A stretch of DNA of 64,000 nt from Neophaeotheca triangularis (lineage: Eukaryota): the NCBI GenBank assembly GCA_054600435.1, contig BAAIJX010000045.1, forward strand, positions 1-64,000, read 5' to 3'. Every line of letters starts with the position of its first letter. The stretch's first letter is position 1. The notes below the pieces were generated by a model that searched no databases, was not told the DNA's origin, and was given only the letters and a program-made list of their open reading frames with translations. Made by a program: the position numbers and the translations under genes. Shown in pieces: positions 47,731-55,065 of this stretch.

Positions 47731-49269
47731 ATGGAAGATATCGCCCCTTCGTACGATGTCGTCGTCCTTGGCACCGGCCTGACCGAATGTGTTCTCTCCG
47801 GGGTCATGTCCGTTAAGGGCAAGAAGGTGCTCCACATCGACCGCAACGACCATTACGGCGGCGAGTCTGCTTCGGTGAACCTCGAGACCCTCTTCCGCAA
47901 ATATGGCAATTTCCAGGAGGGCACCGAGCCCTGGAAGAAGTACGGCCGGGCCAACGACTGGAACATCGATCTCGTCCCCAAGCTGCTCATGAGCAATGGC
48001 GAGTTGACCAACATTCTCGTCAGCACTGATGTCACGAGGTACTTGGAGTTTAAGCAGATTGCCGGGAGCTATGTTCAGCAGGGGCAGGGAAGCAAGGCTA
48101 CTGTCGCCAAGGTGCCGAGTGATGCTGGTGAGGCGCTGAGGAGTCCGTTGATGGGCCCGTTTGAGAAGAGGAGGGCGAAGAACTTCTTGCAGTGGGTGGG
48201 CAACTTTGACGAGAGCAACCCTAGCACGCATAATGGTAGGTCGATATAGTGCTCCAGCATGTTAGGGGGTTCAACAGGGCCACGCTGACATGCGACTCCT
48301 TGCCAGGCATGAACCTCTCCCAATGCACCATGAAGCAAGTCTACGACAAATACGGCCTTGAGGCTACCACCCGTGACTTTCTCGGCCACAGCATGGCCCT
48401 CTACACGACTGACGACTACATCAACGAAAAGGGTGCGGCCAAGGACTGCATCGAGCGCATCCGCCTCTACGTCAACAGCATGGCCCGTTACGGCAAATCG
48501 CCTTACATCTACCCTCTTTACGGCCTGGGTGAGCTGCCCCAAGGTTTTGCTCGTCTGAGCGCCATCTACGGTGGTACCTACATGCTCAACACCAACGTCG
48601 ACGAGATTACCTACGATGAGAAGGGCAAGGCGACAGGGATAAAGGCAACGATGAAGGAGCGCGGGGAAGAAGGCGACGGCATGAAATTCGAGACAAAGTG
48701 CAGCAAGATCTTCGCCGACCCGTCGTACTTCCCCGGTAAAGTACAGAGCGTGGGGCACTTGATCAAGGCGATCTGTATCCTTAATCACCCGATCGACAAG
48801 ACCGACAACTCCGACTCCCTGCAACTCATCATCCCGCAATCCCAAGTCGGGCGTAAACACGGTAAGTCATCTTCCGAAGACCACCCATGTCTTCTCAACT
48901 AACCCCTCCCCTCCCACAGACATCTACATCGCCTCCATCTCCTCCGCCCACAACGTGTGCCCCAAAGGCTACTACATTGCCATCGTCAGTACCATCGCCG
49001 AAACTTCCGCAAACCACCACCTGGAACTGCAACCGGGTCTTGACCGGTTGGGCAAAATCGAAGAGAAATTCATGGGCCCGCCGATCCCCATCTACGAACC
49101 TTTGGAAAGTGGCGTCAACGATAACATCTTCATTTCCAAATCTTACGACGCGAGCAGCCATTTCGAGACTACGACGGATGATGTGAGGGATTTGTACCGC
49201 AGGGCCGAGGCGGAGGAGTTGAAGGTTGAGGGCCTTAGGGAGGGGCAGAATTTGGTTGCTGAGGATTGA
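47731..49269 (+). CDS. GDI1: Rab GDP-dissociation inhibitor, 3 exons
   Basis: YDVVVLGTGLTECVLSG, HIDRNDHYGGE, NIDLVPKLLM, SPYIYPLYGLGELPQGFARLSAIYGGTYML, SYDASSHFETT. Introns at ~48236-48307 and ~48862-48919. Confidence 0.97.
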
Positions 49270-51866: not shown

Positions 51867-52692
51867 TGCGCGAGAAGGCCTGAGTGTAGTGTTGACCAAG
51901 CGGCCAGCAAACAAGACCGACTGCGTGCTTGAGGCTCGGGGATGCATTCAAAGTCACTAGCGAGATCCGCCTGCCTTCCGCGCGAAAAGTGAAAACACAT
52001 GAATCGTCTCGGCCAGGGATAGGCGACAGTATTCTTTCTACAGTCCAGCGGCCGTGTATCTCTACTTCGTAACTTCCATCGAGTGAAGTCCAGCCGTAGT
52101 TGTTGTTCAGCTTGTCAGCGCCGAATTGAGCAAAGCAATGCTAATTCTTCTCCAAGCCCTTGCCCAAGCAAAGCACGTTGATGAAAAATAGAGGTTCGCG
52201 TCAGCCAGAGATAGTGCGATACTGGCGACACGGTGACAGTGAGCATGCGCAAGCACAGGAGCTCACTACCTGATGCCAAAAATAAGAATAATCTTGAGGG
52301 TCCCGTAGGACCGTTTCAGAGATTAAACTGAAACTAAAAGAGGAAGGAGTCAGTCTCTGCATCGTGGGTCGTTCCTTCCTAAATAGGCAACTTACAGAAC
52401 AGATACTACACTTGATCTAAGCCAAAAGGCCTTGAAGAGAGTACAAGTTAGCATATAATCGAGGTGAAGTTACGGGTGGGAGTTGAACGTACAAAGAGAG
52501 CTGGAAAAGGAAAAGAGGAAGATGGAGGGAGGCGGCGGCGCGGCCGAAATTATAGTTGCGCGAGAAGGCCCGTGCGTGCCAGTGACTAAGCAGCCAACAT
52601 CAAAAGCGAGACCAACGGCGTGCCTGAGGCCTTACGGTGTGTGCGGGCGGAGGCAGACACGTGAAAGGGAAAAAAAAACGCATGAATCGTCT
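51867..52692. repeat. Two diverged direct copies of a ~140-bp block (51867-52009 and 52557-52692) flanking U2
   Basis: Shared in order: TGCGCGAGAAGGCC, TGACyAAGCrGCCArCA, AGACCrAC.GCGTGCyTGAGGC and CATGAATCGTCT. Confidence 0.85.
52192..52442 (-). ncRNA. U2: U2 spliceosomal snRNA gene containing a 62-nt spliceosomal intron (52334-52395)
   Basis: Minus strand reads GCCTTTTGGCTTAGATCAAGTGTAGTATCTGTTCT | intron | TTTCAGTTTAATCTCTGAAA. Sm site ATTTTTG at 52277-52283; 3' stem-loop IV-like CCAG-TATCGCACTATC-TCTGG. Spliced length is ~190 nt; ends are approximate. Confidence 0.95.
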
Positions 52693-52747: not shown

Positions 52748-54685
52748 TCACTCCTTCCTACCCTTCCCTGCCATCTCCTCCCTCATCTCCCGCTTCATCC
52801 TAGTAATCGTGCCTACACCACCATACATCATCGCGGTATAAACTTGACAAACACTAGCCCCGGCGTTCAGAATTTCGAGACACTGGCTGCCATTCGTGAT
52901 ACCCCCGGTTGCGAAGATGACCTTAGGCTCGGCAGCCAGGCGCGAGCTAGATGGAGAAGCCGCCGAGCTGGGCGATGATGATGATGACGGTGGTGGTGGT
53001 GTGGTTGTTGAGGGGCTCGTCGCGGTCTCTGGGGATGCGGAGGTGGAGTCGGCGGCTTCCGTGTTTTGGGCTAGTGAGGAGGAGGGGGAGAGGTTTCCGA
53101 CGGGAGAGGAGGCGGGGGAGGTTTTGGACTGGTCGGGGAGTTGCAGGAGGCTCTGGGAGTCTTGAGAATCGGAGGGATTGGATGGGTTTAGGGATTTTAG
53201 GTGCGCGGCGTCGCGGGCGGTGCTTGCTTCTGTTGGGTCGGGCTCCGAGGATGCACTTTTGGGAGATGGCTTAGTGGATTCCAGCGGTGGGATGCTCTTG
53301 GCTGCTGAGTTGGGCTGGTTTGGTGTAGAAATGTTCGATTGTTTTTTCGCTGCGGACAAAGAATCGTTGTCGATTGAGGCGGTGTCCAGTTTGTTGCGAT
53401 ACTTCTTGACGAGCTCTAGTGTCCGGCTGAACATTTGCGGGCCAGAGTAGCCGCCTGCCTCTGTAAGAAGCCTTTCCTCTTCGGCTGGCATTACGTAGCC
53501 TTTTGGAATTGGGTCTGGTCGCTTTTTGGTGGTGTTTCCGACTATCACGCCATCAACGCCGCTTGCCCAGACAGCGGAGCAGATGCCCTCCACTTGGCTC
53601 TCGCCATCTTCATCAGGCGAAACTTTGACCATGACCGCTGGCTTGTTTTTGCGATCGCACGATTTTGCTGCATTCACTACCGCCGACAAGATAGCTGTAA
53701 GAGGAGCAGTGGCCTGCAAGTCACGCAAGCCAGGTGTGTTTGGCGATGAAACATTCACGACAAGAATATCCGCGTATTTGGCTAGGGTGTCGACGCAGTA
53801 GACGTAGTCAGCAGCCACTGCGGCAAGATCGTTGTCCGGAGTTGTTTTGTTCTTTGCGACCTGCACGGCCAGCAGTTTACCGGGTACCAGACTACCCGGT
53901 GGCACGCCTTCTTCGCCGTCAAGGATGAGGCGCTCGCCTTCGGGGTCCAAGCCTAGCCCGTGCTCGTAGGCATACTCTCTCACCCGCTGCCGAAGTTGCA
54001 CAGCAACGTGATCAGCACCATCAGAATTCAAACCATAGCGATTGATGAGAGCGTTTTGGGACGGAAGACGGAACACTCGAGGCTTGGGATTGCCCTCCTG
54101 GGGTCTGGGTGTTGCGCCTCCTACTTCGACGATTGCCGGGCCGAGCGCGAAGAGAGCGTCGGGGATATCTGCATTTTTGTCTATGCCAGCAGAAGTACCA
54201 ATGGGGTTATCCAGTACATGCCCAAAGACCTCAACGTGGAGATCGCCTAGCTTAACATCTTTATCTCCCCGCTCGCGTGGATGGAGATTGAAGTCGAAAA
54301 GGCCTTTGATGTACTTGATTCCGGCATGGTGGGCACCTTCGGGGTCGGAATGCAAAAGTCGCAAGGTTGGGACGACGAACCACTGGTGAATAGAAGCTCG
54401 AGTGTCGGTAACGTAGAGGTAGGTGAAGCCAAGGGCGAGTGCTATGGCCGAGCCGTACAGAGCGTTCTTTGCCCGAGTAGCTGCTGAACGAGCCTCTTTG
54501 GCTTCGGTCGAGGCATATCTATAGGGTGTCTGGCTTTGGGGTACTCTTGATGCTGGTCTTCTGGGTGTGAGAGCGTTTGCGGAGAGTTGGCGGTGCCATT
54601 GACGCTGGAAGAGGCGAGGTGAAGTCCTGTGTAAGACGTTAATGGGCCTTAGCAGCCTTGCTGACAGTTCTTTCGTCCCTTGCAT
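52748..54685 (-). CDS. URA9: Dihydroorotate dehydrogenase (quinone), mitochondrial, class 2
   Basis: Mitochondrial presequence and TM anchor, NPIGTSAGIDKN, PQEGNPKPRVFRL, INRYGLNSDG, VNVSSPNTPGLR, KVSPD, GNTT, GGYSG, ATGGI, QVYTAMMYGG. Confidence 0.96.
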   Translation of the reverse strand: MQGTKELSARLLRPINVLHRTSPRLFQRQWHRQLSANALTPRRPASRVPQSQTPYRYASTEAKEARSAATRAKNALYGSAIALALGFTYLYVTDTRASIHQWFVVPTLRLLHSDPEGAHHAGIKYIKGLFDFNLHPRERGDKDVKLGDLHVEVFGHVLDNPIGTSAGIDKNADIPDALFALGPAIVEVGGATPRPQEGNPKPRVFRLPSQNALINRYGLNSDGADHVAVQLRQRVREYAYEHGLGLDPEGERLILDGEEGVPPGSLVPGKLLAVQVAKNKTTPDNDLAAVAADYVYCVDTLAKYADILVVNVSSPNTPGLRDLQATAPLTAILSAVVNAAKSCDRKNKPAVMVKVSPDEDGESQVEGICSAVWASGVDGVIVGNTTKKRPDPIPKGYVMPAEEERLLTEAGGYSGPQMFSRTLELVKKYRNKLDTASIDNDSLSAAKKQSNISTPNQPNSAAKSIPPLESTKPSPKSASSEPDPTEASTARDAAHLKSLNPSNPSDSQDSQSLLQLPDQSKTSPASSPVGNLSPSSSLAQNTEAADSTSASPETATSPSTTTPPPPSSSSSPSSAASPSSSRLAAEPKVIFATGGITNGSQCLEILNAGASVCQVYTAMMYGGVGTITRMKREMREEMAGKGRKE

Positions 54686-55065
54686 CCTCCTCACTGCTGC
54701 GTGCCGAAGATGGCGAGTGAGGTGAGGTCACGGTTGAGTGCCGTCGGGTGATCGGGACTTGTCGTTCGTCCGTCCCAGCCACGCGGTTGCGTCGCGGCAA
54801 CGGGCCGATGCCACGCGCTTTCCAGGTTTGGACAACCCTTTTAGATTAATTTCGTCATGGAGCAGCTCGAGCGCGTCTCCCGTCTGGCTGAAAGCTCCCG
54901 AGGTCAAGATTGCGACTAAGACATCCTTCTGTTGACTCTCCCCTTCCTGCAGTTTGTCTCACGTTGGTACGAAATGCCAGACTACACACCATCAACGATA
55001 CATTCTACTGCTGGACACGACAAGACGATAACTACTTCCCCATAGCGTCCACCTCGACGAGCAAA

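Follow-up and report, generated by a model that had tools for sequence, protein, structure and literature searches.

Searched in full with Rfam cmscan, the 64-kb stretch of DNA analyzed here (hereafter the window) gives a single match above the gathering score, to the U2 snRNA model RF00004 on the minus strand (52441..52190; 110.4 bits, the gathering score being 46; E = 1.9e-21; model positions 1–192), which bears out the initial annotation of a U2 gene on that strand. No U1 or U5 gene was detected at the Rfam gathering level in the 64 kb. In the RF00004 alignment, stems IIa and IIb, the Sm site, and stem-loops III and IV are covered by paired columns with high posterior probabilities. The Sm site and the 3' stem-loops show no large gaps relative to the model and are intact, as had been claimed. 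The alignment also contains 79 inserted bases, against 16 expected, between the branch-site region and stem IIa. The features that we recognize at the locus are collected in table 1. We read them as those of a real and probably functional U2 gene containing two introns. Spliceosomal introns in snRNA genes are of an already known kind; the present locus adds a U2 gene with two of them. For one protein of the window, mitochondrial and DnaJ-like, we examined the nearest Atlas cluster, which is mostly composed of Ascomycota.

Table 1. Predicted features of the U2 locus, in the order of transcription, with positions in the window
Feature	Position	Strand	Basis or remark
TATA box (TATAAT)	52549..52554	minus	52 nt upstream of the proposed U2 start; sequence reading
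C/T-rich tract	from the TATA box down to 52503	minus	sequence reading
Exon 1, 10 nt, AGCUCUCUUU, capped 5' end of U2	52493..52502	minus	alignment, HMM
Intron 1, 62 nt, GTACGT / GCTAAC / AAG	52431..52492	minus	signals, HMM, splice-aware alignment, same-site relatives
Exon 2, 35 nt, stem I, U6-pairing region, and linker up to stem IIa	52396..52430	minus	alignment, Rfam
Branch-site recognition hexamer, within exon 2	52409..52404	minus	Rfam alignment
Intron 2, 62 nt, GTAAGT / GACTGAC / TTTTAG	52334..52395	minus	signals, Rfam insert, HMM, splice-aware alignment
Exon 3, ~144 nt, stems IIa/IIb, Sm site, stem-loops III and IV	52190..52333	minus	Rfam model ~64–192; 3' end approximate
Stem IIa, wholly in exon 3	52333..52314	minus	Rfam alignment
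Sm site AUUUUUGG	52283..52276	minus	sequence reading, Rfam alignment
3' flank, TTTTTCAT motif at 52188..52181, then a short inverted repeat	52150..52189	minus	sequence reading

Relatives of the gene were sought by scanning metagenome contigs with a 20-base stretch of stem IIa, a search pattern that rules out introns inside positions 46–65. At least 117 loci were found. Three of the 117 listed (L030, L048, and L075) are not U2, leaving 114 U2-like loci. The 5' end is included in 92 listed loci, which correspond to 87 distinct, fungus-like U2 sequences. Each locus was compared with the spliced window U2 by a splice-aware dynamic-programming aligner, which accepts inserts of at least 35 nt that start with GT or GC and end with AG. 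In addition, 35 natural U2 genes lacking introns served to build a profile HMM, which was searched with nhmmer, and six genes including that of the window were aligned with MAFFT.

Intron 2 runs from G52395 to G52334, exactly 62 nt. Its GACTGAC motif has the branch A 16 nt from the 3' end, and no other AG intervenes between the branch and the acceptor. Between the branch-site recognition hexamer and this intron there are 8 nt, and its insertion point coincides exactly with the 5' base of stem IIa. In the six-gene alignment, the other five rows are cleanly gapped over its 62 columns. The initial annotation had proposed such an mRNA-type intron, located shortly 3' of the region that recognizes the branch site; the coordinates and motifs given there are exact, and the HMM supports the exactness of its predicted excision. 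The accompanying statement that excision restores stem IIa applies to the junction between the linker and the stem, not to the stem itself, which lies wholly in the downstream exon. No intron at this site, position 45 of U2, was found in the 114 U2-like metagenome loci among the matches listed. Intron 2 contains an 8-bp inverted repeat, but shuffled controls fold just as well (z = 0.11), and we rejected the hairpin as a feature.

The organization of the 5' region is less apparent from the Rfam match. At many metagenome loci, a TATA box is followed by a C/T-rich tract, by the invariant 10-nt start AGCUCUCUUU, and then by the stem I sequence. In the window, the 10 nt at 52502..52493 are likewise AGCUCUCUUU, and they are directly followed by GTACGT, GCTAAC, and an AAG acceptor ending at 52431, after which the stem I sequence continues. 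The branch A in GCTAAC is about 17 nt from the 3' end of this putative intron, and AAG is the first AG past the branch. Between TATAAT (52554..52549) and A52502 there are 52 nt; in the metagenome genes in which a TATAW was found, the corresponding distance ranges from 37 to 62 nt among the matches listed. The site of intron 1, 10 nt from the cap and inside the 5' strand of stem I, is common to three loci among the matches listed (L034, L105, and L110), and the tails of their introns do not imitate a U2 5' end. In the six-gene alignment, the introns that L034 and L110 carry at this site fall in register with intron 1. The level of identity between introns is not decisive: the best value with a same-site intron is 0.69 (L110), and the median over 63 introns is 0.58. 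Intron 1 folds no better than shuffled controls (z = 0.56).

The 5' end of the predicted U2 therefore lies at about A52502, some 60 nt upstream of the start given by Rfam and by the initial annotation, and the segment 52441..52431 is the pyrimidine tail and acceptor of intron 1, not the U2 5' end. On the minus strand, the 7-mer CTCTCTT occurs twice, at the end of exon 1 (52494–52500) and near the 3' end of intron 1 (52435–52441), and it is because of this repetition that Rfam and MAFFT place the U2 5' end in the tail of intron 1. The gene had been described as beginning at 52442 and as containing one intron. Neither point is retained: the TATA spacing, exon 1, and the same-site introns put the start at about 52502, and a second 62-nt intron occupies 52492..52431.

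Excision of the two introns was evaluated with the HMM. The unspliced window gene is matched in two pieces, of 100.1 and 36.1 bits. Deletion of intron 2 leads to one match of 155.0 bits covering HMM positions 10–187, and deletion of both introns to a full-length match of 167.2 bits (HMM positions 1–187). The removal of intron 1 is thus worth 12 bits and extends the match to HMM position 1, exon 1 matching HMM positions 1–10 only once this intron is removed. The splice-aware aligner also recovers both introns on the window itself. As judged from these sequence comparisons, exact removal of both introns restores a contiguous conserved U2 RNA. One mRNA intron of the host, with its reading frame determined by eye, was available as a control within the window (48237..48306, 70 nt, GTAGGT / GCTGAC / CAG). 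The U2 introns, of 62 nt each, resemble this single control in size and signals, each having a consensus donor and a branch site of the CTRAY type. The gene holding the control intron was taken by eye as a GDP-dissociation-inhibitor homologue.

The exons of the window gene are highly conserved. The six-gene alignment shows no variation in the TATA columns, in the 10 columns of exon 1, in the 35 columns of exon 2, or in stem IIa. The spliced window sequence was also compared, in an alignment, with the full-length mature U2 sequences of 80 distinct genes, and it agrees with them at all 72 columns that are invariant across these genes and at 97 of the 98 columns conserved at 95% or more; a single disagreement is an ordinary value, 12 of 81 sequences having one as well. 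For pairs of genes sharing an intron site, the exons are 0.97–0.99 identical and the introns 0.67–0.92 identical. As the exons are so much more similar than the introns in these pairs, such split U2 genes are under selection, with constrained exons and introns that drift yet are predicted to remain functional.

Just past the U2 3' end, the motif TTTTYAT was identified in 85 of 104 loci among the matches listed, often with a short hairpin after it. This motif, represented by TTTTTCAT in the window gene, and the inverted repeat that follows may constitute a signal for 3'-end formation. In fission yeast, 3'-end formation of U2 is known to depend on RNase III. Just upstream of the U2 gene and on the same minus strand, a 648-aa ORF (52748–54694) is by eye dihydroorotate dehydrogenase-like, and its C-terminal half contains a long segment rich in Ser and Pro.

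Among the matches listed, 49 of the 87 distinct U2 genes contain one to three introns: 38 genes have none, 42 have one, six have two, and one (L054) has three. The initial annotation had questioned whether U2 introns are frequent among filamentous ascomycetes; these 49 split genes among 87 fungus-like ones would, if their hosts are ascomycetes, speak against that doubt. The aligner called 57 inserts, one of which (in L006) is an artefact, the real insert not ending in AG. These 57 inserts among the matches listed are 48–164 nt long (median, 55 nt), and their commonest donors are GTAAGT (16 inserts), GTACGT (10), and GTCAGT (9). A CTRAY motif with the branch A located 9–25 nt from the 3' end is present in all 57, and this feature was not demanded by the aligner. 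According to a hand tally of the matches listed, 50 of the 56 real introns are inserted at positions 6–31, with site 24 as the commonest (11 introns), and the remaining ones at positions 66 (three introns), 89, 156, and 166. In total, 23 distinct intron sites are represented in the 87 distinct genes among the matches listed. In 57 × 57 comparisons, the metagenome loci yielded no pair of spliced and unspliced copies, which could have served as evidence at the RNA level.

Several of these loci have unusual organizations. First exons of only 6–9 nt are found in many of them (for example L003, L020, L050, L053, L077, and L104), and GTCAGT is a frequent donor at the cap-proximal sites, 6–9 nt from the presumed cap. 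L028 and L053 harbor second introns at sites 166 and 156 (57 and 58 nt, respectively), both with a GTAAGT donor. As these second introns are in the 3' part of the gene, U2 introns are not confined to its 5' region. L006, on a 728-kb contig, is U2-like (88.7 bits) and carries a 48-nt insert inside the branch-site recognition hexamer, with a GTGAGT donor and a CTAAC branch motif. This insert ends in CG, and use of the next AG would delete part of U2. L006 may be a pseudogene, a gene with a non-canonical acceptor, or an assembly error.

We submitted 20 loci to Rfam, and each of them exceeds the U2 gathering score, with 140.6–160.5 bits for the four intron-less loci and 69.9–131.4 bits for the 16 split ones. 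Covariance-model annotation detects split U2 genes but gives them wrong ends and keeps their introns in. For the window gene, standard annotation had been expected to miss or truncate the locus. Its detection is in fact well above threshold, but the 5' end is misplaced and intron 2 swallowed.

The window U2 has its introns at sites 10 and 45, and its nearest full-length relatives among the matches listed have them elsewhere. L009, L062, and L066, with about 0.87–0.89 identity to the window U2, share sites 24 and 66; among the other near relatives, L116 has an intron at site 24 only and L112 has none. L054 combines three introns at sites 11, 24, and 30 (70, 50, and 49 nt), which leave an internal micro-exon of 6 nt, and L057, whose exons are 97% identical to those of L054, has the site-24 intron alone. 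These differences between close relatives indicate that intron sites turn over quickly.

We propose that the locus is an RNA polymerase II-type U2 gene of an ascomycete-like fungus, occupying the minus strand between positions ~52502 and ~52190, in which three exons of 10, 35, and about 144 nt would be parted by two 62-nt spliceosomal GT-AG introns. The TATA box located 52 nt upstream would drive the synthesis of a precursor of about 313 nt, and the existing spliceosome would remove both introns to yield a U2 of about 189 nt. A two-intron U2 gene that is transcribed and spliced is, as a whole, the best explanation for our observations, and we assign it a probability of about 0.8. We infer that the RNA is made and spliced and that it is the functional U2 of the cell. 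As both introns need the spliceosome, new U2 would depend on U2 that is already present. Such a need of old U2 for new U2 would be a dependency and not a demonstrated regulatory loop, of which the initial annotation had raised the possibility. U2 selects the branch point of every intron, and a twice-spliced U2 gene would tie the supply of this RNA to existing U2. This organization would also mean that first exons of 10 nt are tolerated, and of down to 6 nt in related loci.

Three other interpretations were considered. The gene might contain one intron only. U2 would in that case start near 52441–52443, only 52395..52334 would be an intron, and the succession of AGCTCTCTTT and GTACGT upstream would be a coincidence. 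The Rfam alignment does reach model position 1 at 52441, MAFFT aligns the sequence likewise when the same-site homologues are left out, and the alternative 5' end provided by the tail of intron 1 could, by eye, pair as an acceptable stem I. However, the nearest TATAW upstream of this start is about 111 nt or about 15 nt away, outside the range of 37–62 nt, and the 10 nt past the C/T tract correspond to the invariant U2 5' end with a consensus donor directly after. A single intron is also at odds with the 12 bits gained, and HMM position 1 reached, upon removal of intron 1, and with the occurrence of an intron at this site in L034, L105, and L110, where the intron tails do not resemble a 5' end. 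We consider a one-intron gene to be very unlikely.

The locus could also be an interrupted pseudogene or a spare copy, with its insert or inserts retained or the whole locus silent, and with an intron-less U2 gene elsewhere supplying the cell. The uniqueness of the intron 2 site with respect to the 114 U2-like loci among the matches listed would be in keeping with such a fate. Against it, the exons show no decay, all 72 invariant and 97 of 98 near-invariant columns being kept, the promoter architecture is intact, and both introns retain full sets of splice signals; in addition, more than half of the distinct U2 genes sampled, among the matches listed, are split, and split genes display exon-specific constraint. 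A pseudogene or spare copy is on this evidence unlikely. U2 is enlarged in budding yeasts, and its length varies among fungi. By analogy, the two inserts might be lineage-specific expansion segments retained in the mature RNA, and this length variation is the one argument for it. Expansion segments would hardly be expected to carry complete donor, branch, and acceptor signals, as both inserts do, or to break stretches that are invariant in every other gene, and neither insert folds better than its shuffled controls (z = 0.11 and 0.56). This last interpretation is therefore highly improbable, and the two-intron U2 gene is the reading that we follow below.

How the two introns of the window gene were acquired is a separate question. 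It had been suggested that an introner-like insertion could be involved. When both introns were searched for with blastn in the 64-kb window and in the 117 listed loci, only self-matches were returned, other matches being at most 19 nt long with E values of at least 0.09, which lends no support to this suggestion. Positions 6–31 of U2 pair with U6 and with the branch site in the spliceosome's catalytic core. The concentration of intron sites in this U6- and branch-pairing part of U2 fits the idea of intron gain by reverse splicing, as presented in excerpts of a 2018 review (PMC5855946). A plain bias toward the 5' end would yield a similar picture of sites. We likewise infer the route of acquisition for the window introns, which may have been reverse splicing. 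More generally, we tentatively suggest, at somewhat less than even odds, that spliceosomal introns have been gained and lost repeatedly in the U2 genes of ascomycete-like fungi, which would make these genes a hot spot. If this is true, U2 would naturally record how introns enter, through reverse splicing, RNAs at the active site, and the site-45 intron of the window, at the base of stem IIa, would have been acquired recently and in its own lineage only. The main evidence from nature that has been put forward for introns being gained through reverse splicing close to the catalytic center comes from introns of snRNA genes. If the pattern holds in named genomes, the intron sites of U2 could be compared with spliceosome structures, which would test reverse splicing.

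In the excerpts of the 2018 review (PMC5855946), the only U2 intron cited is that of Rhodotorula (Erythrobasidium) hasegawae (Takahashi et al. 1993). Introns of U1 and U5 are cited there from the same species (Takahashi et al. 1996), together with many unrelated introns in fungal U6 genes (Tani and Ohshima 1989, 1991; Canzler et al. 2016). In Aspergillus fumigatus, predicted lengths of 276 nt for U2-1, 277 nt for U2-2, and 505 nt for U4 are given in table 3 of PMC2377427. According to the excerpted parts of that article, which make no mention of introns, these RNAs are only partially alignable and their sizes on northern blots differ from the predictions. The A. fumigatus U2 and U4 lengths given in these parts (PMC2377427) would fit the presence of unrecognized introns. 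In the full-text literature that we searched, which covers few subscription journals, we found no survey of U2 introns comparable to that of U6, and within this literature frequent multi-intron U2 genes with varying sites are undescribed.

The U2 intron of R. hasegawae, reportedly about 60 bp long and placed just past the region that recognizes the branch site, is much like intron 2 of the window. Both genes are RNA polymerase II U2 genes with a spliceosomal GT-AG intron in their conserved 5' part, as far as the excerpted account of the R. hasegawae gene goes (Takahashi et al. 1993, in PMC5855946). R. hasegawae is a basidiomycete yeast, whereas the host of the window gene is ascomycete-like, and two introns are present in the latter gene, including one that lies only 10 nt from the cap. 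The U1 and U5 genes of R. hasegawae similarly have mRNA-type introns in conserved parts of Sm-class snRNA genes, according to the same excerpts, in snRNAs other than U2. The fungal U6 genes share more features with the sampled U2 loci. As described in the excerpts of PMC5855946, their introns are numerous and unrelated, with as many as four in one gene; these introns have canonical signals and are concentrated near catalytic-core sequences, and in U6 as in the sampled U2 genes, intron sites are common to some relatives and absent in others. Unlike U2, U6 is an RNA polymerase III transcript. Conversely, the fungal U3 snoRNA (Myslinski 1990; Canzler et al. 2017, excerpts of PMC5832005) is, like U2, a structured RNA polymerase II transcript with a TATA promoter and a spliceosomal intron, in this case in a different RNA with a different function.
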